From: Escherichia coli
GTDB lineage: Bacteria; Pseudomonadota; Gammaproteobacteria; Enterobacterales; Enterobacteriaceae
NCBI RefSeq assembly: GCF_022846255.1
Contig: NZ_AP025682.1
DNA: 64,000 bases
Direction: 5' to 3' (one strand)
This document shows positions 2,300-37,390 of the stretch, piece after piece. The first letter of the stretch is position 1. Each line of letters begins with the position of its first letter. The notes under the pieces were generated by a model, which saw nothing but the letters and a program-made list of their open reading frames with translations, searched no databases and was not told the origin of the DNA. Made by a program: the position numbers and the translations under genes.

Positions 2300-4762
2300 A
2301 TGAAAAACAGTAAGGCATTTTACCGCAGCGCATTAGCAACAGCTATTGTTATGGCTCTTTCTGCACCAGCATTCGCTGCTGATAAAGCGGTATCAACTGA
2401 TTCGGTTACGCTGAATAAAGATAAGACAACTCTGGATCAAGATGTTGTTATTAACGGTGATAACAAGATTACAGCCGTAACAATTGAAACGTCAGATTCA
2501 GATAAAGACCTTAATGTTACTTTTGGCGGTCACGATATTACCGCCGCATCAACGGTAAACCAAGGTTTCGTTGAAGGTGTAAAAGTTAGCGGTGACAAAA
2601 ATGTTGTGATTAATGCTACAGGCTCCACCATCACAGCTCAAGGTGAAGGCACCTATGTCCGGTCTGCAATGGTCATTTCTTCAACTGGCGATGTTGTTGT
2701 TAATGGCGGTAATTTCGTTGCAAAAAATGAAAAAGGTAGTGCGACAGGGATATCTCTGGAAGGGCCCCAGGGAAATAATGTCACGCTCAATGGCACAACC
2801 ATAAATGCTCAAGGCAATAAGAACTCCAGCAACGGCTCCAGGGCAATTTTTGCTCAAAAGGTTAGCGGATTGGATGGTTTTAACGGTGATGCAACAGACA
2901 ACATTACCCTTGCTGGCTCAAATATTATTAATGGTCGGATTGAAACAATACTTATTGCCAAGGAGAATAAGGGAACTCATACAGTCAACCTGAATATTAA
3001 GGATGGCTCAGTAATTGGGGCGGCTAATAATAAACAAACAATTTATGCCTCAGCTTCGGCACAAGGAACAGGTTCAGCAACGCAAAATTTAAATTTGTCT
3101 GTTGCTGATTCAGCCATCTACTCTGATATCAAGGCCCTTTCTGTAAGCAATAGTTCAGTCGGTACCACAACAAATGTAAACATGAACGTTGCCCGCTCTT
3201 ACTGGGAAGGTAATGCTTATGCTGATGCTTATGGCGATAAAGCGAGTAGTAATCTGAATATAAATCTTTCCGATGGCTCAGTCTGGAAAGGTAACGTAGG
3301 TAAAGGTCTGGATGGTAGTGCACGTGTCACACTGAAAAACTCCAGCTGGGATGGTGATGTCAACAACGCCAAAACTGCTGTTTTTCTGACGGATGGTTCT
3401 GTGTGGAATGGTGCTGTTTCCATTAACGCGCCAGTGGACCGCGCATCAGTACCAATGGGCTCGGTTCAACCAAATAAAAGCAGTGTATCTCTGCAAAACG
3501 GGTCTGTCTGGAATGTTACGGGAGCCTCAACTGTTGATGCTCTGGCAGTAAAAGACAGTACGGTTAATATCACGAAGGCTACAGTCAATACTGGCACGTT
3601 TGCTTCTCAAAACGGCACTCTGATTGTTGATGCCTCTTCTGAAAACACTCTGGATATCAGCGGAAAAGCGAGCGGTGACTTGCGTGTTTACAGTGCGGGT
3701 TCATTGGATCTTATCAATGAACAAACGGCATTTATTTCTACCGGCAAAGACAGCACTCTAAAAGCCACAGGCACAACGGAAGGTGGTCTGTATCAATATG
3801 ACCTGACACAGGGAGCTGATGGTAACTTTTATTTCGTAAAAAACACGCATAAAGCATCCAACGCCAGCTCCGTGATTCAGGCAATGGCAGCTGCTCCGGC
3901 TAACGTTGCTAATCTGCAGGCTGACACGCTCTCCGCCCGTCAGGATGCTGTCCGTCTGAGCGAAAATGACAAGGGCGGCGTATGGATTCAGTACTTTGGC
4001 GGTAAACAGAAACATACCACCGCGGGAAATGCATCCTATGACCTGGATGTAAATGGTGTAATGCTGGGTGGTGATACCCGCTTCATAACTGAAGATGGTA
4101 GCTGGCTGGCCGGTGTGGCGATGTCTTCTGCGAAAGGTGACATGACTACCATGCAGAGCAAAGGTGACACTGAAGGTTACAGCTTCCACGCTTACCTGAG
4201 CCGCCAGTATAACAACGGTATCTTCATTGATACTGCTGCACAGTTTGGTCACTACAGCAACACGGCAGATGTTCGCCTGATGAATGGTGGCGGTACCTTT
4301 AAAGCTGACTTTAACACCAATGGTTTCGGTGCGATGGTTAAAGGTGGTTACACCTGGGAAGACGGTAATGGCCTGTTTATTCAGCCATATGCCAAACTGT
4401 CTGCTCTGACGCTGGAAGGTGTGGATTATCAGCTCAACGGCGTGGACGTTCATTCTGACAGCTATAACTCTGTGCTGGGTGAGGCCGGTACGCGCGTGGG
4501 TTATGACTTCGCTGTGGGCAACTCGACCGTTAAACCTTATCTGAATCTGGCCGCACTGAACGAATTCTCTGATGGCAACAAAGTCCGTCTGGGTGATGAG
4601 TCTGTCAATGCCAGCATTGACGGTGCAGCATTCCGCGTGGGTGCAGGTGTACAGGCTGATATCACCAAAAACATGGGAGCATATGCTAGCCTTGACTACA
4701 CCAAAGGTGACGACATTGAGAACCCGCTACAGGGTGTAGTTGGTATCAATGTGACCTGGTAA
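2300..4762 (+). CDS. Autotransporter (type Va) adhesin, pertactin/AIDA-like passenger plus C-terminal beta-barrel
   Basis: Signal peptide MKNSKAFYRSALATAIVMALSAPAFA; passenger repeats (NGTTINAQG, DGSVWKGNV, DGSVWNGAV, NGSVWNVTG); C-terminal translocator ending ...GVVGINVTW. Track ORF starts at TTG 2267; ATG 2300 has GGAG SD. Confidence 0.85.
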   Translation: MKNSKAFYRSALATAIVMALSAPAFAADKAVSTDSVTLNKDKTTLDQDVVINGDNKITAVTIETSDSDKDLNVTFGGHDITAASTVNQGFVEGVKVSGDKNVVINATGSTITAQGEGTYVRSAMVISSTGDVVVNGGNFVAKNEKGSATGISLEGPQGNNVTLNGTTINAQGNKNSSNGSRAIFAQKVSGLDGFNGDATDNITLAGSNIINGRIETILIAKENKGTHTVNLNIKDGSVIGAANNKQTIYASASAQGTGSATQNLNLSVADSAIYSDIKALSVSNSSVGTTTNVNMNVARSYWEGNAYADAYGDKASSNLNINLSDGSVWKGNVGKGLDGSARVTLKNSSWDGDVNNAKTAVFLTDGSVWNGAVSINAPVDRASVPMGSVQPNKSSVSLQNGSVWNVTGASTVDALAVKDSTVNITKATVNTGTFASQNGTLIVDASSENTLDISGKASGDLRVYSAGSLDLINEQTAFISTGKDSTLKATGTTEGGLYQYDLTQGADGNFYFVKNTHKASNASSVIQAMAAAPANVANLQADTLSARQDAVRLSENDKGGVWIQYFGGKQKHTTAGNASYDLDVNGVMLGGDTRFITEDGSWLAGVAMSSAKGDMTTMQSKGDTEGYSFHAYLSRQYNNGIFIDTAAQFGHYSNTADVRLMNGGGTFKADFNTNGFGAMVKGGYTWEDGNGLFIQPYAKLSALTLEGVDYQLNGVDVHSDSYNSVLGEAGTRVGYDFAVGNSTVKPYLNLAALNEFSDGNKVRLGDESVNASIDGAAFRVGAGVQADITKNMGAYASLDYTKGDDIENPLQGVVGINVTW

Positions 4763-19647: not shown

Positions 19648-22571
<2,924 letters not shown>

Positions 22572-24828: not shown

Positions 24829-25971
24829 ATGACAAATAAACACCCATCATTGTTTTCTCCTTTTATGCTGACAGAAAAAATAAAGCTACGTAATCGTATC
24901 GTTATGGCTCCTATGACAACCTGGTCAGCTAATCCTGATGGAACCATCTCTGAGCAAGAACTCGAATTTTATAAACGTCGCTCACAAAATGTTGGTTTAG
25001 TAATAACAGGATGTACCTATGTCACGCCAAGCGGCATTGGGTTTACTCATGAATTTGCCGCGTATGACGACCGTTTCATTAACAGCCTTGAAAAGTTAGC
25101 AGCTGCAGCCAAAAGTGGCGGTGCTCCGGCTATTTTACAGATTTTCCACGCCGGTAATAAAGCTATCCCGGAGCTTGTGCCAAATAACGATGTTATTAGT
25201 GCCAGCGCATCAAGCGTAAAATCTGGTGACTTTATGAAGAGAGTGGTACAAAGCAGGGAAATGACTGAAAACGAAATTCAGGAAACCATTAGAGCATTCG
25301 GAGATGTCACAAAAAGGGCGATTAAAGCAGGTTTTGATGGCGTTGAACTTCATGGTGCGCACGGATTCCTTCTGCAGAATTTCTTCTCCCCTCTATTTAA
25401 CCAGCGTAATGACCGATGGGGAGGAGATCTTGAAGGACGTATGCGCTTCCCGCTGGCCGTATTACAGGAAGTAAAAAATGTAGTCTATGAATATGCGACA
25501 AAGCCCTTTGCTATCGGTTACAGAATATCTCCTGAAGAATCTGTAACAGGGGGGCTGCGGATAGAGGATACTTATAAACTCCTTGATCGACTCATTTCAT
25601 CCGGTATTTCGTATATACATACCTCGCTGGTCAGTATTAACGATAGCTACCCTGTTGAGTCGCCAAATGGCCCCCGAACTATTGAATTGATTTTAAATCA
25701 TATTGCAGGCAGAGTGCCGGTAATCGCCGCAGGTAAAATACGCACACCGTCTCAGGCTCAAGAAGCAATTTCCGCTGGCCTGCCACTTGTTGCGATCGGT
25801 AAAGGGCTGGTGATAAATCCAGAATGGGTGACTTTAGCTGAATCAGGTAGAAGTCATGAAATTCAAACAGCCCTTAATCCACAACGCGTTCCTGAATTAA
25901 CCATTCCGGATAAACTATGGGATCAAATTCAGGCATCGAAAGGAACTGGCTGGTTTCCGTTAATGGATTAA
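24829..25971 (+). CDS. NADH:flavin oxidoreductase, Old Yellow Enzyme family
   Basis: 380 aa; OYE TIM-barrel motifs (...RIVMAPMTT..., HGAHGFLLQNFFSPLFNQRND...); GAGG SD. Confidence 0.8.
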   Translation: MTNKHPSLFSPFMLTEKIKLRNRIVMAPMTTWSANPDGTISEQELEFYKRRSQNVGLVITGCTYVTPSGIGFTHEFAAYDDRFINSLEKLAAAAKSGGAPAILQIFHAGNKAIPELVPNNDVISASASSVKSGDFMKRVVQSREMTENEIQETIRAFGDVTKRAIKAGFDGVELHGAHGFLLQNFFSPLFNQRNDRWGGDLEGRMRFPLAVLQEVKNVVYEYATKPFAIGYRISPEESVTGGLRIEDTYKLLDRLISSGISYIHTSLVSINDSYPVESPNGPRTIELILNHIAGRVPVIAAGKIRTPSQAQEAISAGLPLVAIGKGLVINPEWVTLAESGRSHEIQTALNPQRVPELTIPDKLWDQIQASKGTGWFPLMD

Positions 25972-26443
25972 ATATCGATTACTCTCCCGAGAGTAAAACT
26001 ATCAAATCAATGAGTAACCGATACAGCCTCGCAAATTCTTTCAGATAATTAACCCGTCACTGCGGCACGTTCTCTCGTAAGGCGTGCCTGCAGTGTAATC
26101 CAGTATGTATCCGGCATAGTTGACGGTTTAATAGACTCAATTCCTCTCCCTGGTTACCTACAACGATATCTTGTATAACACCCCAGGAGATACGACGTTA
26201 CGATGAGATGCGATATGCTCCTCAGCGCCAATCAACGCCAGGACTGGGCCAGTCTTGAGATCAGACTCATTCCCGTAACTGATTTCAGGCGACATATATC
26301 AATGACGTTGGGGCAATAAAAGATAGCCGATGTAATACATCTATTCAAATTTGTGATACATGTCAAAAAATTGGTTGACCAAACTCGTTATTTATATAAG
26401 GGCACTTACGAAGTGCACTCTTTTTTAAAGCGAGGAAGTACCA

Positions 26444-26545
26444 ATGAAAGAGAATAAAGTACAGCAAATCAGTCATAAACTGATTAATATCGTTGTTTTT
26501 GTCGCAATTGTAGAATACGCCTATTTATTTCTCCATTTCTATTAA
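26444..26545 (+). CDS. ykgR: Small membrane protein, YkgR-like (33 aa)
   Basis: GAGGAAG SD then MKENKVQQISHKLINIVVFVAIVEYAYLFLHFY*; single TM helix; below track size cutoff. Confidence 0.5.
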   Translation: MKENKVQQISHKLINIVVFVAIVEYAYLFLHFY

Positions 26546-26880
26546 TAACGGCAATAAACTGTTCACTTCAGTGATATTTAAAATATGCATCCTCTCCCTT
26601 TTTTGTAAGTAATTATTATATCCGTGGGAGAGGAATACACATTGTCAGGTAATCAATCATGCTGCAATAAATCATCGGCCAGTAAAGTGGAGATAGCCTC
26701 CATTCTCGAAAAATCCATACTCTCAGCGAAACCATCATCAATCACTCATCCAGGCGTTTATGGGAGCGTCGCCAATGGCTGCTAACAATGCCAGACTTCC
26801 CCGTTGCGGAAATTCCACATCCCACAAATAGTCACAGTGATTGGGTGTTGAAATGATCCGGATGAGTATGTATCTTTACG

Positions 26881-26898
26881 GTTATGTTATAACATAAC
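26881..26898. promoter_or_regulatory. Zur box upstream of ykgM-ykgO
   Basis: Perfect 18-bp palindrome GTTATGTTATAACATAAC matching the Zur TGTTATA..TATAACA core, 9-12 bp upstream of the start codon. Confidence 0.6.
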
Positions 26899-26906
26899 AG
26901 GTAAAA

Positions 26907-27173
26907 ATGATGAAACCCAATATCCATCCTGAGTATCGTACTGTGGTGTTCCACGACACCAGCGTTGATGAGTACTTTAAAATCGGCTCGACTATCAAAA
27001 CAGACCGTGAGATTGAGCTGGATGGCGTAACGTATCCGTACGTAACAATTGATGTCTCTTCGAAATCGCACCCGTTCTATACAGGGAAGCTGAGAACAGT
27101 GGCATCAGAAGGAAATGTTGCACGGTTCACCCAACGTTTTGGTCGTTTTGTTAGCACGAAAAAGGGGGCATGA
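26907..27173 (+). CDS. ykgM: Ribosomal protein L31 paralog (type B, zinc-independent)
   Basis: M(M)[25 protein letters not shown]... lacking the CxxC zinc ribbon; ATG at 26907 or 26910. Confidence 0.9.
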
Positions 27174-27313
27174 TGAAAGTCCTTAACTCTCTGCGTACCG
27201 CAAAAGAACGCCATCCAGACTGTCAGATTGTGAAGCGAAAAGGACGGCTGTATGTGATTTGTAAATCTAATCCACGTTTTAAGGCCGTTCAGGGTCGTAA
27301 GAAAAAACGTTGA
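27173..27313 (+). CDS. ykgO: Ribosomal protein L36 paralog (46 aa)
   Basis: [46 protein letters not shown]; ATG overlaps ykgM stop (TGATG); below track size cutoff. Confidence 0.9.
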
Positions 27314-27363
27314 TTCAAAATTCGACGAATTAACGATATTTGTCTGATTAATAATCAGACCGG

Positions 27364-27402
27364 ATTAATGTTGGTGTATTTATTACACCAGCATTAATTT
27401 TC
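27364..27402 (+). terminator. Intrinsic terminator after ykgM-ykgO
   Basis: 15-bp stem (1 mismatch) ATTAATGTTGGTGTA/TACACCAGCATTAAT then TTTT. Confidence 0.6.
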
Positions 27403-28327
27403 CTGGGGATGTATCTTCCTGTTCATTTAAGGTCAACTGCCTGACGTTTCTCTCCGAATATTCCATTATATTAATGTTGACTTGTTGACCAGTTTCGCCC
27501 TGTATGCTGGCATCAACTCTATTTTAGACTGAACACGCCACTCAGTTTCCTCCCTTTGCGACGCAGCCTGCATTTACACTCAAACTGTTAAGATGATAAA
27601 TGTGGTAAATCTGTTGGTACTGACATAAAAACGTTTACGCCACAGGAACGGCCAGATCCATCGGTAACCCCATCGCCGACGTTCGAGTGCCAGTTAGAGT
27701 AACACGCACAGATGACTGAATGCAGTGCCCTGGCAAAGAGGCCATCGTTCCTGTGACAACTGGCAGTCTTCGTTTAACTTCACTTAATTTGGCTCTTGGG
27801 GGGCTTACCGGACAGATGACGTACTTACACCTGTTTAATTTTTCATCACTTATTGGGATGAACACCCATAACCATTTTGTGCGGCATGTTAATCCATTAA
27901 AACACCTTACCGATTGGCAAATCATCTTTAATTATGACTTATGATAGTTTTATATTCTATTTCTTATCATTTAAACTTGTTTTTTTACTAGTCCATTACA
28001 CAACACATTAAGACTATTCCTAACACCTCAGGGCAAAGTTCCTGGCTAATATAAAATGCAAGTAAGAATTGAACGTTATATTGCCAATAACCTTATGAAA
28101 CTGAATGTCTTTTTCTTCTTATCAAAAAAGCAATATTTTCATTTTTTGTAAATATTGACTTAACCATGGAATTCATTTTCTGTTCACATATTGACACTCA
28201 TCAGGAAAAAAACATAAATTTAAACCTAATCGAAATAATTAAAACTTAATCTCGTTTAACCTATATTGATATGTGCTACGTATCTTATTTACTTCCGATT
28301 TACTAAAGAAACTGAATGTACCTGTAA

Positions 28328-28939
<612 letters not shown>

Positions 28940-29013
28940 ACTCCAGGCAAGTTAGTTTTAAAAAATGACTCACCGGGACTTCATGTCCTCAATTCAACTC
29001 GGGAAGAAAAGCA

Positions 29014-29601
29014 ATGAAAAAAAAGGTTCTGGCAATAGCTCTGGTAACGGTGTTTACCGGTACAGGTGTAGCGCAGGCTGCTGACGTAACAGCTCAGGCT
29101 GTAGCGACCTGGTCAGCAACAGCCAAAAAAGACACCACCAGTAAGCTGGTTGTGACGCCACTCGGTAGCCTGGCGTTCCAGTATGCCGAAGGCATTAAAG
29201 GTTTTAACTCACAAAAAGGTCTATTTGACGTGGCTATCGAGGGTGACTCAACGGCTACCGCCTTTAAACTGACCTCACGCCTTATCACCAACACCTTAAC
29301 CCAGTTGGATACCTCAGGTTCCACACTGAATGTGGGCGTGGATTATAACGGCGCGGCAGTCGAAAAAACTGGCGATACCGTGATGATCGATACCGCCAAC
29401 GGCGTACTGGGCGGCAACCTTAGCCCACTGGCTAACGGTTACAATGCCAGCAATCGTACCACCGCACAGGATGGTTTCACTTTCTCCATCATCAGCGGCA
29501 CCACCAATGGTACCACCGCAGTAACCGATTACAGCACTCTACCGGAAGGCATCTGGAGCGGCGACGTTAGCGTACAGTTCGACGCTACCTGGACCAGTTA
29601 A
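29014..29601 (+). CDS. ecpA: E. coli common pilus major subunit EcpA (MatB)
   Basis: 195 aa; signal peptide [22 protein letters not shown]; T/S/G-rich pilin. Confidence 0.9.
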
Positions 29602-29616
29602 TCTCTCTGATGTACC

Positions 29617-29636
29617 AGCAGGGGTACCCCCCTGCT
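29617..29636 (+). terminator. Hairpin after ecpA (possible attenuator)
   Basis: AGCAGGGG-TACC-CCCCTGCT followed by TTATT, between ecpA stop and ecpB start. Confidence 0.35.
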
Positions 29637-29657
29637 TTATTCCTGGACGGAATTGTT

Positions 29658-30326
29658 ATGAAAAAGCACCTTCTGCCTCTCGCTCTGCTGTTTTCCGGAA
29701 TATCACCGGCCCAGGCGCTGGATGTCGGCGATATATCATCGTTTATGAACAGTGACAGCAGCACGCTAAGCAAAACGATCCAAAACAGTACCGACAGTGG
29801 CCGCCTCATCAATATCCGTCTCGAACGGCTCTCTTCACCGCTTGACGACGGGCAGGTTATCGCAATGGACAAGCCGGATGAGTTGCTACTCACTCCCGCC
29901 AGCTTGCTGCTACCCGCCCAAGCCAGCGAAGTGATCCGCTTCTTCTATAAGGGACCAGCAGATGAAAAAGAGCGCTACTACCGCATTGTCTGGTTTGATC
30001 AGGCCCTCAGTGATGCGCAGCGCGATAATGCCAACCGTAGCGCTGTGGCCACTGCTTCCGCCCGCATCGGCACCATTCTGGTCGTCGCACCCCGCCAGGC
30101 GAACTACCACTTTCAGTACGCCAACGGCTCCCTGACAAATACAGGAAATGCGACGTTGCGGATCCTCGCCTACGGCCCCTGCCTGAAAGCCGCCAATGGT
30201 AAGGAGTGTAAAGAGAATTACTACCTGATGCCGGGCAAGTCGCGTCGTTTTACCCGCGTGGACACGGCGGATAACAAAGGACGGGTTGCACTTTGGCAGG
30301 GTGATAAGTTCATTCCCGTGAAATAG
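29658..30326 (+). CDS. ecpB: Periplasmic pilus chaperone EcpB
   Basis: 222 aa from [20 protein letters not shown] (track ORF extends 16 codons upstream). Confidence 0.85.
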
Positions 30327-30351
30327 ATAGCTGTGCAGATGGATAACGACA

Positions 30352-32877
30352 ATGCCTTTACGACGGTTCTCCCCAGGACTGAAAGCCCAGTTTGCCTTCG
30401 GCATGGTCTTTTTGTTCGTTCAGCCCGATGCCAGCGCTGCTGACATAAGTGCGCAGCAAATAGGTGGGGTGATTATTCCGCAGGCCTTCAGTCAGGCGCT
30501 TCAGGACGGCATGAGCGTCCCGCTCTATATTCATCTCGCCGGTAGCCAGGGTCGCCAGGACGATCAGCGAATCGGCAGCGCTTTTATCTGGTTGGATGAT
30601 GGACAGTTACGCATCCGGAAAATACAGCTGGAAGAGAGTGAAGATAACGCCAGTGTCAGCGAACAAACTCGACAGCAACTGATGACTCTGGCCAACGCCC
30701 CGTTCAATGAGGCCCTTACCATCCCCCTGACTGACAACGCGCAGTTGGATCTCAGCTTGCGCCAACTGCTGCTGCAGCTGGTGGTCAAGCGCGAAGCGCT
30801 GGGCACCGTACTACGCTCACGTAGCGAAGACATCGGGCAGTCCAGTGTTAACACCCTCAGCAGTAATCTGAGCTATAACTTCGGCGTCTATAACAACCAG
30901 TTGCGTAACGGCGGGAGCAACACCTCCAGCTATCTGTCGCTGAATAACGTTACTGCGCTGCGCGAACATCACGTGGTGCTCGACGGCTCACTGTACGGGA
31001 TTGGTAGCGGTCAACAGGACAGTGAATTATATAAAGCGATGTATGAACGCGATTTTGCTGGTCACCGATTTGCCGGTGGAATGCTCGACACCTGGAACTT
31101 GCAGTCCTTAGGGCCGATGACCGCCATTTCAGCAGGGAAGATTTACGGCCTTTCCTGGGGAAACCAGGCCAGCTCCACCATCTTCGACAGCAGCCAGTCG
31201 GCCACGCCAGTGATCGCCTTTTTACCGGCGGCGGGCGAAGTACATCTCACCCGTGATGGGCGGCTACTAAGCGTTCAGAACTTCACCATGGGCAATCATG
31301 AAGTGGATACCCGGGGTCTACCGTACGGTATTTACGATGTGGAAGTTGAGGTAATCGTTAACGGTCGCGTGATCAGCAAACGCACCCAGCGGGTCAATAA
31401 GCTGTTTAGCCGGGGGCGTGGCGTCGGTGCACCGCTGGCGTGGCAGATATGGGGCGGTAGCTTTCATATGGATCGCTGGTCGGAAAACGGGAAAAAGACG
31501 CGACCAGCCAAAGAGAGTTGGCTGGCAGGTGCCTCGACCTCCGGCTCACTGAGTACGCTTAGCTGGGCGGCAACGGGATATGGATACGATAATCAGGCGG
31601 TGGGTGAAACCCGTCTGACGCTGCCGCTTGGGGGGGCGATCAACGTTAACCTGCAAAACATGCTGGCCAGTGACAGCTCATGGAGCAACATCGCCAGCAT
31701 CAGCGCCACTCTACCTGGAGGCTTCAGTTCGCTGTGGGTTAACCAGGAAAAAACCCGCATTGGCAATCAATTGCGACGTAGCGATGCCGACAACCGTGCA
31801 ATCGGCGGCACACTCAACCTGAACTCACTGTGGTCGAAGCTGGGTACGTTCAGCATCAGCTACAATGATGACCGCCGCTACAACAGCCATTATTACACGG
31901 CAGATTACTATCAAAGTGTCTACAGCGGTACCTTTGGTTCGCTTGGCCTGCGGGCCGGTATTCAGCGCTATAACAACGGCGACAGCAGCGCCAATACAGG
32001 GAAATATATCGCTCTCGATCTCTCGCTACCACTGGGCAACTGGTTTAGCGCAGGGATGACCCATCAAAACGGCTACACCATGGCAAACCTGTCAGCACGC
32101 AAACAGTTTGATGAAGGAACCATTCGCACTGTTGGTGCCAATCTGTCACGAGCCATCTCCGGCGATACCGGTGATGACAAAACCCTCAGCGGTGGGGCGT
32201 ATGCACAGTTCGACGCTCGTTACGCCAGCGGAACGCTGAACGTCAATAGCGCGGCGGACGGCTACATCAATACCAATTTGACCGCCAACGGCAGCGTCGG
32301 CTGGCAGGGTAAAAACATCGCTGCCAGCGGGCGGACCGATGGCAACGCTGGGGTGATATTCGACACTGGCCTGGAGAACGATGGTCAGATCAGCGCCAAA
32401 ATCAACGGGCGGATTTTCCCGCTTAACGGCAAGCGTAACTATCTCCCGCTCTCTCCCTATGGAAGATATGAGGTGGAGTTGCAGAACAGCAAAAACTCAC
32501 TCGACAGTTACGATATCGTCAGCGGTCGCAAAAGTCATCTGACTCTCTATCCAGGCAATGTCGCTGTCATTGAGCCAGAGGTGAAGCAGATGGTTACCGT
32601 CTCCGGTCGTATCCGTGCGGAAGACGGCACACTGCTGGCTAACGCACGGATTAACAACCATATCGGCCGAACCCGAACCGATGAAAACGGCGAGTTTGTC
32701 ATGGACGTGGATAAGAAATACCCCACTATCGATTTTCGCTACAGTGGCAATAAAACCTGCGAAGTGGCACTGGAACTCAACCAGGCGCGCGGTGCCGTCT
32801 GGGTCGGTGATGTGGTCTGCAGCGGCCTCTCATCGTGGGCGGCGGTGACGCAGACAGGAGAAGAGAATGAGAGTTAA
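30352..32877 (+). CDS. ecpC: Outer-membrane usher EcpC
   Basis: 841 aa with signal peptide; position in ecp operon. Confidence 0.9.
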
Positions 32878-34510
32878 CCTACTGATAGCGATGATAATCT
32901 TTGCGCTAATCTGGCCTGCAACCGCGCTCAGAGCGGCAGTGAGCAAAACAACCTGGGCGGATGCTCCGGCACGCGAGTTTGTGTTTGTCGAAAACAACTC
33001 AGACGACAACTTTTTCGTCACTCCTGGCGGGGCGCTGGATCCGCGCCTGACCGGTGCCAACCGCTGGACCGGTTTAAAATACAATGGTTCAGGAACCATC
33101 TATCAGCAAAGCCTCGGCTACATTGATAACGGTTACAACACCGGCCTTTATACCAACTGGAAGTTTGATATGTGGCTGGAAAATTCACCAGTTTCATCTC
33201 CTTTAACTGGCTTGCGCTGCATCAACTGGTACGCAGGGTGTAATATGACCACCAGTCTTATCCTGCCGCAAACCACCGACGCCAGTGGATTTTATGGCGC
33301 GACGGTGACCAGCGGCGGCGCGAAATGGATGCACGGCATGTTGTCAGACGCGTTTTACCAGTATCTGCAACAAATGCCCGTCGGCAGCAGCTTTACAATG
33401 ACCATCAATGCCTGCCAGACCTCTGTGAACTATGACGCCAGCAGCGGCGCACGCTGTAAGGATCAGGCCTCCGGCAACTGGTATGTTCGCAACGTCACCC
33501 ATACGAAAGCAGCAAATCTGCGGTTGATAAATACCCACTCGCTGGCGGAAGTATTTATCAACAGCGACGGAGTTCCGACTCTGGGCGAAGGGAACGCCGA
33601 CTGCCGGACGCAAACCATCGGCAGTCGTTCAGGATTAAGTTGTAAGATGGTTAACTATACCCTGCAAACAAACGGACTCAGCAACACCTCAATCCATATA
33701 TTCCCGGCGATCGCCAACTCGTCGTTAGCCTCGGCCGTCGGGGCGTACGATATGCAGTTCAGTCTGAATGGCAGTTCATGGAAACCGGTGAGCAATACTG
33801 CCTATTACTACACCTTCAACGAGATGAAGAGCGCAGACTCGATCTATGTTTTCTTCTCGAGCAACTTCTTTAAACAGATGGTGAACCTCGGGATCAGCGA
33901 TATCAACACCAAAGATCTATTCAACTTTCGCTTTCAGAACACCACATCACCGGAGTCTGGCTGGTATGAATTTTCTACCTCCAACACGCTGATTATCAAA
34001 CCCCGTGATTTCAGCATCAGTATTATCTCCGATGAATATACTCAGACACCGTCGCGGGAGGGATATGTCGGCAGCGGCGAGTCGGCACTCGATTTCGGCT
34101 ATATCGTAACCACCAGCGGTAAAACAGCTGCCGACGAAGTGCTGATCAAGGTGACCGGACCCGCGCAGGTGATTGGCGGGCGCTCCTATTGTGTCTTCAG
34201 CTCCGATGACGGTAAGGCTAAAGTACCGTTCCCGGCGACGCTTTCCTTTATTACCCGCAACGGAGCTACAAAAACCTACGATGCCGGGTGCGATGATAGC
34301 TGGCGGGATATGACCGATGCGCTGTGGTTGACCACACCGTGGACTGATATCTCTGGCGAAGTGGGGCAGATGGATAAGACCACAGTCAAATTTTCGATTC
34401 CAATGGATAACGCCATTTCTCTGCGTACGGTAGATGATAACGGCTGGTTTGGCGAAGTCAGCGCTTCAGGAGAGATTCATGTTCAGGCGACGTGGCGTAA
34501 CATTAACTAA
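32867..34510 (+). CDS. ecpD: Pilus tip adhesin EcpD
   Basis: 547 aa with signal peptide [23 protein letters not shown]; overlaps ecpC by 11 nt. Confidence 0.9.
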
Positions 34511-35189
34511 GGCCCTGCTGACAGTGGTCTGTATGCTGGCGGCACCTTTGACACAGGCGATTTCGGTCGGCAATCTGACTTTTTCACTGCCGTCCGAGAC
34601 TGACTTTGTCAGCAAACGTGTCGTGAATAACAACAAAAGCGCGCGGATATACCGTATTGCCATCAGTGCTATTGATAGCCCGGGCAGCAGTGAATTGCGC
34701 ACCCGACCGGTGGATGGTGAACTACTTTTCGCCCCCCGCCAGCTGGCGTTGCAGGCTGGTGAGAGCGAGTATTTTAAATTTTACTATCATGGTCCACGGG
34801 ATAACCGCGAGCGCTACTACCGGGTCTCATTTCGCGAGGTCCCCACTCGTAACCTGACAAAACGCAGCCCAACCGGCGGTGAGGTCAGCACGGAGCCGGT
34901 GGTGGTGATGGATACCATTCTGGTAGTACGACCACGTCAGGTTCAGTTTAAATGGTCCTTCGATCAGGTGACCGGAACGGTAAGTAACACCGGCAACACG
35001 TGGTTTAAGCTACTGATTAAACCAGGATGTGATTCGACCGAAGAGGAAGGCGATGCCTGGTATCTACGTCCGGGAGACGTGGTTCATCAGCCTGAGTTAC
35101 GTCAGCCGGGGAATCATTATCTGGTCTATAACGACAAATTCATTAAGATTAGCGATTCCTGTCCGGCTAAGCCCCCTTCGGCGGACTAA
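34479..35189 (+). CDS. ecpE: Second chaperone EcpE
   Basis: 236 aa from [27 protein letters not shown] with AGGAG SD; overlaps ecpD 3' end. Confidence 0.85.
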
Positions 35190-35501
35190 GACTTATCCAT
35201 CAGACGAGGGAAGAATTCCACCTCAGAGACTCAAAAATCGTTTAAATGATGTGGAAGCGATCGTCAATGTCACCTGTAACGATGAGCTTTCTCATATGCA
35301 CACCACAGTGTTCAGGAGACACGGAAAGGTACCAGGCGGCCTGCTAACGAGTGGTTTCTTCACTAATTAGGACGTAAAATCGGTAACGGCTGGAAATCAT
35401 TCAATACTCACACTATCGAAAGTACACCAGCCAACCGAGATACGTCCCTGCATACGACGTACCGCAGTTATCTTTACGATTTATAGCTGTACTGGTGAAT
35501 T

Positions 35502-35831
35502 ATGAGCAATCTGAATCCATGCATGACGTGTGGTGCCTGTTGTGCATTTTTCCGCGTCTCTTTTTACTGGGCCGAAGCCGACGATGCTGGCGGTACCATT
35601 CCCGCCAGGCTCACTGAACAAATATCCCCTTTTCACCGATGCATGAGCGGTACTAATCAGAAAAATCCCCGATGTATTGCCCTTGCAGGAACACCGGGCA
35701 AAAATGCCTGCTGCACGATATATGAAAATCGATCGTCCACATGCAGAGAATTCGCCATGTCTGGTGAGAACGGAGAAGTCAATGAGGCTTGCAATCGTGC
35801 AAGAGCTAAATACGGGCTAACACCGTTATAA
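35502..35831 (+). CDS. ykgJ: YkgJ-family cysteine-cluster (putative zinc/iron-binding) protein
   Basis: 109 aa, [11 protein letters not shown] and C-x-T-x-Y-x(n)-C motifs. Confidence 0.8.
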
Positions 35832-35853
35832 ATATACAATAATTAATTGCATT

Positions 35854-35888
35854 GCCCCGCCAGCTGTAATAGCGGGGCTTCGTTTTTC
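35854..35888 (+). terminator. Intrinsic terminator after ykgJ
   Basis: GCCCCGC...GCGGGGC stem followed by TTCGTTTTTC. Confidence 0.6.
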
Positions 35889-36038
35889 AGGGACAACAAA
35901 ACCTGAAACTTCTTCCATTTTCCAGCAACAATGCCTCTTCTTCTGTAGCGTTCTCCGGATCTACATCATCCTGAAGTAGCGCGATATGATCACTGACTGT
36001 CCGCATCAGAATATGAAAAGCAACGTTTTTAACCTATA

Positions 36039-36065
36039 AAAATGGCGCTATATTTGCGCCATTTT
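36039..36065 (-). terminator. Intrinsic (bidirectional) terminator after yagU
   Basis: AAAATGGCGC-TATATTT-GCGCCATTTT perfect 10-bp stem flanked by A/T runs. Confidence 0.6.
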
Positions 36066-36079
36066 TATCATTCAAAGCA

Positions 36080-36694
36080 TTATCTATTTGAGCCTAAAGG
36101 GATCTCAGGATCTGGCTCATGGGTAATTCTGTTTCGTAAATCTCTGCGAATAATTTCAATAGACCAGAACCAGACTAAATGTCCAAAAATTTCAGAGACA
36201 TTCTCATACCACGGAAGCTCAAAGAGAGGTGGCGTAAGTCCCATGAGAGGGAATGAAATCATATGAACAAAAAGTTGCGCTAAAGCACCTGCCAGTAAGC
36301 CCTGCCAAAGTTTAATTTTCGGAAATACTTCGGCGACCACACAGTAACCAACGGCAAAAACTATCGAAAAGATTATGTGCGTTACACCAACCCAGTTAAA
36401 GACATGCCCGGCGAAGGTATAAACAGCCGAATTTGGATCTGTCAGTCCCAACCAATCCCGAAGAAAAATGTACGGAGGATTGAGAAAGTTACGGGAGCAA
36501 TCAATTTGGCCTGCAGCCCTGATTAATGATTCCGGACCACACGCTGCATTAAACATATCAACCGGACTACGTGGTGGCAATGGAACTTCTGCCCCCCACT
36601 TAACAAATGCGGAAACAACGCCAGCAATCAGCCCAATGAATGCAGCAAGACCATAACGTCTGCGGTTTGGTGGAGTTTGTTCAAATATATTCAT
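36080..36694 (-). CDS. yagU: Inner-membrane protein YagU (DUF1440)
   Basis: 204 aa, multi-[36 protein letters not shown]... Confidence 0.85.
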
Positions 36695-36901
36695 ATCTAC
36701 CCTGCTTGTACCATTATGTTATACACCTCTTTAGGAGTATTCATAAAACAAGGCAAATGTAAAGAACTGTATTGTTTTGTATAACCACATGGTTACCTAA
36801 TCGCCAATTAATATAAGCTCCATTATTTCTCCATATTTTTATGTTAGAAGTGACAAGGAGAAATGTAATGTTTCTCTCAGAGAATATAAATCATTCCTTT
36901 T

Positions 36902-36926
36902 GCCCACCTTAATGGTGGGCTTTTTT
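36902..36926 (+). terminator. Intrinsic terminator in the yagU-thrW spacer
   Basis: GCCCACC-TTAAT-GGTGGGC then TTTTTT; overlaps the stop of a 14-codon mini-ORF. Confidence 0.5.
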
Positions 36927-37151
36927 ATGCAAAACCTGAACGTCCTGTGGTATTCCTCTGGCATAATGATTTTCGCGATTAACCAACAACCAGACCAGCA
37001 AAGACGCCACCACAAGCACAGCAACATCCATCAGGCTTGCCACACCCCATGCGTGCGGCTCAAAGCCGCCATGGCATATTAATCCGCTTGCCATTTTCGA
37101 ACAGCTGATTGGTTTAGTCCGGTGTTTCCCTGCTTGCACTTAAAAATGAGC

Positions 37152-37226
37152 GGATGGGAAACTCTCGAAATGGTTCGTCGATATGCTCACCTCGCACCTA
37201 ATCACCTTACCGAACACGCACGGTAA
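37152..37226 (+). pseudogene. Remnant: last about 25 codons of a phage-type tyrosine integrase
   Basis: ...[24 protein letters not shown] (RYAHL catalytic-Tyr tail); upstream frame is not integrase-like; lies 89 bp from the tRNA-Thr 3' end. Confidence 0.45.
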
Positions 37227-37314
37227 ATAGATTCGATCCTGAACCCATCGGTCCCAAATCTGTCCCAATAAAAAATAAGGAAGGTATTAGTGATGTGTAA
37301 CTTATTGATTTAAA

Positions 37315-37390
37315 TGGTGCCGATAAGAGGAGTCGAACCTCCGACCTTCGCATTACGAATGCGCTGCTCTACCAACTGAGCTATATCGGC
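37315..37390 (-). tRNA. thrW: tRNA-Thr (anticodon CGU)
   Basis: 76-nt cloverleaf read on minus strand: acceptor GCCGATA/TATCGGC, D-arm GCTC-AGTTGGTA-GAGC, anticodon loop TTCGTAA, T-arm GGAGG-TTCGACT-CCTCT, encoded CCA. Confidence 0.95.

Follow-up and report, generated by a model that had tools for sequence, protein, structure and literature searches.

The interval studied here is a 935-bp spacer (25972-26906) within a 64-kb stretch of the Escherichia coli chromosome, referred to below as the window. RefSeq gives one gene order for the best match and for K-12 MG1655, namely an NADH:flavin oxidoreductase gene (in K-12 only the ykgP remnant), ykgR, ykgM, ykgO, ykgL, and ecpR, and the succession ykgR-ykgM-ykgO therefore places the finding in the well-studied ykgR-ykgMO region. 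The upstream neighbour differs between the two strains, being a remnant of 90 bp (ykgP) in K-12 and an intact 380-aa oxidoreductase of the Old Yellow Enzyme family in the strain of the window. The G+C content of the spacer is 40%, compared with 49% for the window. RefSeq starts ykgM at the second ATG, at 26910, so that the spacer is 3 bp longer than was first stated. A nucleotide search matched the spacer to 5092 E. coli records, and 5016 of 5426 complete E. coli genomes contain it at a coverage of at least 80%, with identities of 95-100%.

The features recognized are collected in Table 1. Identities, conservation, selection on ORFs, structures, and synteny were computed here; Zur binding and repression, the biochemistry of SRP and RseP, H-NS binding, and stationary-phase induction are taken from the literature. 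The original prediction held that the spacer is devoid of ORFs of 60 aa or more. Inside 25972-26906 this is so, the longest (26624-26785, plus strand) encoding 53 aa; a single qualification concerns the downstream margin, where a 79-aa ORF on the minus strand (26832-27071), antisense to ykgM, overlaps the last 75 bp.

Table 1. Features of the spacer and the adjoining ykgMO genes, in window coordinates
Feature	Position	Strand	Basis or remark
Fast-evolving segment, absent from E. fergusonii-type genomes	25980-26315		336 bp; homology jumps from 25979 to 26316 in L020-L023
Imperfect GC-rich hairpin, 12-bp stem with one bulge	26058-26095	+	87 nt past the stop codon of the NADH:flavin oxidoreductase gene (Old Yellow Enzyme family)
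Conserved ykgR upstream block (putative promoter and 5' UTR)	26329-26443	+	Low divergence
CRP-like site TGTGATACATGTCAAA	26352-26367	+	TGTGA-N6-TCACA with 1 mismatch
Small hairpin GCACTTACGAAGTGC and T-run, just upstream of the ykgR Shine-Dalgarno sequence	26402-26426	+	Terminator-like flag
ykgR Shine-Dalgarno sequence GAGGAAG	26432-26438	+	Read from the sequence; five nt before the ATG
ykgR, 33-aa small membrane protein YkgR (b4671)	26444-26545	+	Identity, family HMM, RefSeq, selection
3' stem-loop, 45 nt after the ykgR stop codon	26590-26634	+	-19.4 kcal/mol, z = -2.9
Most variable part, AT-rich, target zone of insertion sequences	26639-26847		Allele alignment, insertion-sequence events
ykgMO sigma-70 promoter TTGAAA-17-TATCTT	26848-26876	+	Promoter scan
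Zur operator GTTATGTTATAACATAAC, perfect 18-bp palindrome	26881-26898	+	Covers the inferred start site and early 5' UTR
ykgM (L31B) and ykgO (L36B)	26910-27173 and 27173-27313	+	Zinc-independent ribosomal paralogues under operator control; Pfam, RefSeq

The ykgR gene and its product

The short ORF in the middle of the spacer encodes MKENKVQQISHKLINIVVFVAIVEYAYLFLHFY, and its proposed identification as ykgR, made from the sequence of a 33-aa peptide with a single transmembrane segment, is correct. The translation is identical to UniProt YKGR_ECOLI, RefSeq gives the ORF this name in K-12 and in all strains checked, and the NCBIfam equivalog NF041474 recognizes it over its full length (residues 1-33 on profile positions 1-33) with 78.1 bits, where the cut-off is 40. 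A Pfam scan of the 33-aa ORF gave no match with a copy of Pfam that predates the newer model PF28062, which the protein collection assigns to the ykgR products of the related contigs L006, L007, and L020-L027. Compared with K-12, the 33 residues, the Shine-Dalgarno sequence, and the place upstream of ykgMO are the same, and the gene shows no difference. Its annotation dates from 2008-2009.

The layout expected of the YkgR family, which is one of about 33 residues with a short polar N terminus and one hydrophobic helix running to the C terminus, is found here, residues 1-12 being hydrophilic (mean Kyte-Doolittle value -1.6) and residues 13-33 hydrophobic (+1.9). YkgR would be a single-pass membrane protein resembling the tail-anchored type. 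SRP recognizes it post-translationally (PMC7549839), and the intramembrane protease RseP has it among its class I substrates (PMC10470546); the protein expressed from plasmids has been detected, cross-linked to SRP, and cleaved by RseP (PMC7549839, PMC10470546), and induction in stationary phase is given in a review (PMC10502375). With YohP, YshB, and AzuC, small membrane proteins of stress or stationary phase, it has in common a length below 50 aa and a single hydrophobic helix. Recognition by SRP after translation is shared with YohP and cleavage by RseP with YshB (PMC7549839, PMC10470546, PMC10502375), but there is no sequence relationship between YkgR and any of the three.

Conservation of the ORF, the lack of which would have spoken against the original prediction, was assessed in 12 intact E. 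coli alleles, the window included, whose spacers diverge by 3-5%. All 12 encode the same protein, annotated as WP_000662258.1 in 11 of them and under another accession, with identical translation, in K-12. Just one of the 102 columns of the coding sequence varies, a synonymous exchange of CAG and CAA, compared with 72 of 574 columns (~12%) in the non-conserved spacer segments that served as flanks (binomial P = 1.8e-5). More remote comparisons were provided by contigs L020-L023, here called E. fergusonii-type, the probable species being suggested by the UniRef name that protein variant P0003 carries and by the flanking genes, which are 92% identical. Between these genomes and E. coli, ykgR has accumulated six synonymous changes and the single conservative substitution V6I, giving dS = 0.43, dN = 0.013, and dN/dS = 0.03. 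In L006, which represents a more distant lineage, YkgR carries three substitutions, all in the polar N terminus, with the hydrophobic core unchanged; six of the seven bases of the Shine-Dalgarno sequence are invariant, the final G being A in L006. The low dN/dS, together with the near invariance among alleles, marks the ORF as a genuine gene that is kept under strong purifying selection.

The family is very small. Among 1.84 billion cluster representatives, nine matches were found, all of them close Escherichia variants or assembly artefacts, and YkgR is, as judged from these collections, confined to Escherichia. When the core KLINIV(V/I)FVAIV was used as a degenerate pattern against genome contigs, in a collection apparently without Escherichia, the only matches were two tiny contigs from unrelated assemblies, with 98% identity to E. 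coli, which were set aside as contaminants.

The ykgR module and its control region

Homology to the E. fergusonii-type genomes extends up to 25979, within a remnant of the oxidoreductase gene, resumes from 26316 to 26638 at 88% identity, and then stops. In these genomes, ykgR is followed by an integrase remnant, the tRNA-Thr gene thrW, and proA, which in the window lie from 37144 onwards. The breaks in synteny at 26316 and 26638 therefore delimit ykgR as an autonomous module of ~323 bp, and, because ykgR is not adjacent to ykgMO in the E. fergusonii-type genomes, the adjacency of the two is specific to E. coli. The module would be made up of a 115-bp upstream block, the Shine-Dalgarno sequence, the ORF of 33 codons, and a conserved 3' stem-loop.

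The upstream block differs between E. coli and the E. fergusonii-type genomes by three substitutions and one indel in its 115 bp, and is, in these alignments, far better conserved than the synonymous sites of the coding sequence, for which dS is given above. Across the species, an identity of at least 99% is found over 26330-26560 in 4304 of 5075 records, and over the spacer as a whole in 1024 records only. Work on the regulation of YkgR should accordingly look to these 115 bp and not to the zinc regulon.

Several elements within the block might contribute to such regulation. The CRP-like sequence is the only match with at most one mismatch in the window, where 2.2 would be expected by chance, and because about two such sites are expected per window, a CRP-like role for TGTGATACATGTCAAA can be put forward as a hypothesis only. 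Both half-sites are kept in L006, with TG replaced by CC in the spacer between them. The small hairpin ahead of the Shine-Dalgarno sequence is the one site found by the scan for terminator-like structures, with 1.1 expected. It is no more stable than shuffled sequences, and two one-sided changes in L006 keep its pairs as G-U. The promoter scan gave no consensus sigma-70 promoter for ykgR, the hexamer TTGACC at 26375-26380 lying just 12-14 bp from the nearest TATA-like hexamers; literature supplements yielded no data on the promoter or transcript end of ykgR. The exact ykgR promoter, like the roles of the two hairpins that flank the gene, is something that we infer.

At the other end of the module, the 3' stem-loop keeps nine of nine pairs in the E. 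fergusonii-type genomes, one of them through a compensatory change from C-G to U-A, whereas the sequence of its 27-nt loop has changed and includes an indel. The ykgR unit probably has its 3' end here. The bases that directly follow the stem (AATACACA) do not form a U-tract, and the terminator scan flagged nothing at this position; neither of the hairpins flanking ykgR has the U-tract of a canonical terminator immediately 3' of its stem.

The ykgMO promoter and the Zur operator

The Zur operator of ykgMO is among the best-characterised metal-responsive operators of E. coli. The two genes that it controls were confirmed by Pfam matches to Ribosomal_L31 (9e-25, ykgM) and Ribosomal_L36 (5e-19, ykgO). 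The promoter found by our scan has the same hexamers as that listed for ykgMO by Shimada et al. in 2014 (PMC3946193). An experimentally mapped start site for either this or the ykgR promoter was not found in the literature searched.

A Zur-type palindrome of 18 bp overlapping the ykgM promoter had been proposed, and the proposal is upheld in each of its parts. The two halves, GTTATGTTA and TAACATAAC, form a perfect palindrome that begins 4 bp after the -10 hexamer (26871-26876) and ends 11 bp before the ykgM start codon. At this distance from the -10 hexamer, it extends over the presumed start site and the first part of the 5' UTR. It fits the 18-bp Zur motif RxxxYRxxR*YxxYRxxxY that was derived from the crystal structure of the Zur-DNA complex by Gilston et al. 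in 2014 (PMC4219657). The purine/pyrimidine skeleton of this motif does not discriminate, with 235 matches in the window against ~273 expected; such a frequency being that of chance, the identification of the site rests on its full sequence and position. Similar reasoning applies to its symmetry. It is the sole perfect palindrome of at least 14 bp in the 64-kb window, and no second site within three mismatches of it was found there (0.03 expected). By our own arithmetic, ~0.24 perfect 18-mer palindromes are expected per 64 kb by chance, and since this is not rare, the meaning of the site comes from its sequence and its place on the ykgM promoter.

None of the operator's columns varies among the 12 alleles. 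Within the promoter-operator segment 26848-26906, the T at 26867, between the hexamers, occurs in the window only, the other 11 alleles having C. Set against the known ykgMO operator (PMC4219657), an 18-bp inverted repeat on the promoter directly after the -10 hexamer, the site shows no detectable difference. Of the four Zur operators of E. coli, that operator, termed L31p, scores highest and is among those bound most tightly; its apparent Kd is 0.025e-18 M^2, and repression in vivo reaches 560-fold (PMC4219657). When zinc is sufficient, zinc-loaded Zur dimers on the palindrome would block transcription of ykgMO, and in zinc starvation, Zur would leave and the zinc-free paralogues L31B and L36B would be made. 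This agrees with the established regulatory scheme of repression by Zn-Zur and release of L31B and L36B when the metal is scarce (PMC9825181).

Interpretation of the spacer as a whole

The spacer would be a mosaic in which two functional units, the ykgR module and the ykgMO promoter with its Zur operator, are set in weakly constrained DNA. We are highly confident of the overall reading, that it consists of the known ykgR, the known Zur operator of ykgMO, and a remainder that is AT-rich and fast-evolving. Both ykgR and the operator are already known from earlier descriptions; the finding is correct but ordinary.

The remainder falls into two parts. In the upstream segment (25980-26315), 0.10-0.12 of the columns vary among the 12 alleles, and the ORFs that it contains are intact in 2-12 of the 12, with five to nine protein versions each. 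Variation is higher still in the zone between the ykgR module and the ykgMO promoter, reaching 0.17 of the columns in 26701-26847, where one 7-bp and one 1-bp indel also occur. Insertion sequences have entered this zone more than once: ISEc8 (2.4 kb) lies at 26739-26746, with an 8-bp duplication, in the O157:H7 strain Z852, and an IS1 event is present in the clinical isolate JNEC-KY203. Another IS1 event between ykgR and the ykgMO promoter has been described for a laboratory evolution line (PMC5818497). Strain Z852 also has a frameshifted ykgR. The intergenic region of ykgM and ykgR has been flagged as bound by H-NS (Shimada 2014, PMC3946193). From the pattern of variation, the DNA outside the ykgR module and the promoter looks weakly constrained.

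The imperfect long hairpin reported at 26058-26095 in the original prediction is indeed stable, with a folding energy of -21.7 kcal/mol (z = -3.95), and not one of 200 shuffles folded as well. Since its median is a single copy per genome, with two as the highest number, it is not a repeat of the REP type. It may be a relic or may form a 3' structure on the oxidoreductase mRNA. That it serves as a functional terminator or 3' stabiliser of the upstream gene, and is not a neutral relic, is a possibility that we consider doubtful. Consistent with such a role are its location on the same strand as the oxidoreductase gene, at a short distance past the stop codon, its stable GC-rich stem, its retention in 5044 genomes, and the low variability of its sequence, in which 2 of 38 columns vary compared with 0.10-0.12 per base on both sides. 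However, there is no U-tract directly after the stem on either strand (the next bases are TAATCCAG), and the terminator scan flagged nothing there. Moreover, a polymorphism in the stem (26092 A>T) breaks a pair without compensation in 3 of 12 alleles, the hairpin is unchanged in K-12-type strains whose oxidoreductase gene has been cut down to the 90-bp pseudogene ykgP, and the whole 336-bp segment that contains it is missing from the E. fergusonii-type genomes.

A more elaborate arrangement, to which we give very little credence, would make 26329-26443 a multi-input control region and have transcription from ykgR read through the U-less 3' stem-loop towards ykgMO, with Zn-Zur acting as a roadblock. 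It brings together the CRP-like site and the hairpin with its U-run between promoter and Shine-Dalgarno sequence, which could be an attenuator or a mask of the ribosome-binding site. If true, it would couple a membrane micro-protein to the ribosome switch of zinc starvation in E. coli.

The broader proposal that ykgR takes part in the zinc response, either through co-transcription with ykgMO by read-through of the same stem-loop or because YkgR itself acts in zinc homeostasis, is highly improbable. The two loci are close in E. coli, where ykgR precedes ykgM by 364 bp and is read from the same strand; ykgR lacks a canonical terminator, and the genome counts are nearly equal (5071 of 5426 for ykgR and 5060 of 5426 for ykgMO). 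Nevertheless, the window has no second Zur-like site, and the operator that it does have is downstream of ykgR, so that Zur could block only read-through and not regulate ykgR itself. The DNA between ykgR and the ykgMO promoter is the least conserved of the spacer and is split by the 2.4-kb ISEc8 in the O157 strain. In the E. fergusonii-type genomes, ykgR is under purifying selection and yet stands next to the integrase remnant, thrW, and proA, not beside ykgMO, from which the zinc link gains no support. As far as it goes, the gene order speaks against a functional connection of ykgR with zinc regulation.

The original prediction further suggested that so long a spacer might hide an sRNA or further small protein, and here it found no backing. 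The length of 935 bp, the two stable hairpins, and the presence of the 53-aa ORF and several others of 20-45 aa might be taken to favour an additional unannotated element besides ykgR, but we regard its existence as scarcely credible. The covariance models of Rfam 15 gave no match on either strand of 25000-28500, even at E <= 1. Leaving aside ORFs that merely overlap the ykgR block, no conserved small ORF lying wholly within the spacer was found among the 12 alleles apart from ykgR, the others being disrupted in some alleles or present in five to nine protein versions, and family scans of the four longest of them (38-53 aa) gave no significant match. The 53-aa ORF, which is broken by a 7-bp deletion in two alleles, was rejected as a gene on this comparison, as was its possible extension to 26851. 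The same applies to a 37-aa ORF antisense to the start of ykgR, the ATG of which is lost in L006. Evolution is also fastest in the DNA that belongs neither to the ykgR module nor to the promoter, one of its two parts being absent from the E. fergusonii-type genomes and the other tolerating insertion sequences.

That ykgR might encode a type I toxin, paired with an antisense RNA from a promoter-like site inside the gene, is an idea that draws on the small, hydrophobic, single-pass nature of YkgR, on such a site on the minus strand of the coding sequence (TGGAGA-17-TACAAT, 26535-26507), and on the cleavage by RseP of Hok toxins as well as YkgR (PMC10470546). It was rejected, its likelihood being close to nil. 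Promoter-like sites in the region number two, where 4.5 would arise by chance, and by our own reading of the alignment the antisense site has lost matches in each of its hexamers through synonymous changes in the E. fergusonii-type genomes. Over-expression of YkgR from plasmids has brought no report of toxicity (PMC7549839, PMC10470546), and both RefSeq and NCBIfam place the protein among small membrane proteins and not among toxins.

With the spacer read as the known ykgR and the known Zur operator in otherwise fast-evolving DNA, the useful outcome is a negative one, a long spacer devoid of any further conserved gene or known RNA. The gain is a cleaner anatomy, in which ykgR forms an autonomous module of 323 bp, with a promoter region much more constrained than the DNA around it.

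A number of database matches were discarded along the way. The divergent YkgR variants P0036, P0032, and P0037 have C termini resembling translated sequencing adapter, and contig L007, with its protein P0039, comes from an assembly riddled with indels, where even ykgM is fragmented; all of these were left out of inference. Contig L006 ends in what we take to be the Nextera adapter, CTGTCTCTTATACACATCT. A plasmid match, L005, with the DinQ-like toxin gene dqlB upstream of ykgM, was at first read as an alternative chromosomal haplotype, a reading that was rejected: its dqlB segment is plasmid DNA, with 367 of 369 places located on plasmids, and is joined at ~26809 to a ykgMO-ecp fragment of chromosomal origin. 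The phage search returned nothing. The plasmid search gave matches only from Escherichia, and these are taken to be F-prime plasmids or mislabelled chromosomes.

Arrangement of the ykgR-thrW interval

The neighborhood of ykgR is organized differently in E. coli and in the E. fergusonii-type genomes. In the latter, an integrase remnant, thrW (the gene for tRNA-Thr CGU) and proA come immediately after ykgR, whereas in E. coli the entire ykgMO-ykgL-ecpRABCDE block separates ykgR from the same integrase remnant and thrW. The two arrangements suggest that the thrW integration hot spot was the site where the block was either gained or lost. Within the block, an antisense 3' end lying inside ykgO/ykgM, opposite to the operon, is entered in the supplementary 3'-end table of PMC7815308.

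Features of the ykgR neighborhood and related loci
Feature	Coordinates	Strand (K-12)	Comparison or source
E. coli block between ykgR and integrase remnant/thrW	window 26639-37143		compared with L023 (E. fergusonii-type genome) 2694-2851
Integrase remnant and thrW in E. coli	window 37144-37390		
Antisense 3' end	window 27170-27313 region; K-12 312466	+	PMC7815308, supplementary table
Partial ykgR copy	L019 (plasmid-labelled E. coli record NZ_CP104634.1) 22082-22198		equivalent to window 26477-26593

Upstream of ykgR, the window strain carries an intact gene for an Old Yellow Enzyme-family NADH:flavin oxidoreductase (380 aa, window 24829-25971), whereas in K-12-type strains this gene is reduced to its final 90 bp, the pseudogene ykgP. 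Other strains also retain only a fragment, and the deletions have at least two distinct end-points, at window 25880 and 25925.

Frameshift and partial second copy of ykgR

The annotation of E. coli O157:H7 strain Z852 gives a frameshifted ykgR (L003, the locus from this strain, 3474-3574), so at least one lineage can dispense with the gene. In the same strain an ISEc8 element separates ykgR from ykgM.

The search with ykgR returned some 900 more places than records, with a maximum of four per genome. Some strains have a second, partial copy about 19 kb away from the intact gene; none is present in the 64-kb window. The example in the table is 91% identical, spans the final two-thirds of the coding sequence plus 48 bp downstream and has a disrupted reading frame; RefSeq annotates an 18-aa hypothetical protein at this copy.

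Sequences recorded outside the E. coli chromosome

In the record of plasmid p2 (L005, NZ_CP182373.1, 2560-6098), a chromosomal fragment begins ~98 bp upstream of ykgM and comprises ykgMO, ykgL and ecpRAB together with the promoter and the Zur operator. The plasmid DNA fused to it encodes DqlB, a DinQ-like type I toxin, with IS26 and fosA3 alongside. The fusion could reflect a genuine capture mediated by IS26, or it could be an artefact of assembly.

The E. coli ykgR region is also matched, at 98% identity, by two contigs (L008 and L009, 264-403 bp) in public assemblies of the unrelated Firmicutes Sulfoacidibacillus thermotolerans and Alkalicoccobacillus porphyridii; these contigs are evidently E. 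coli contamination.
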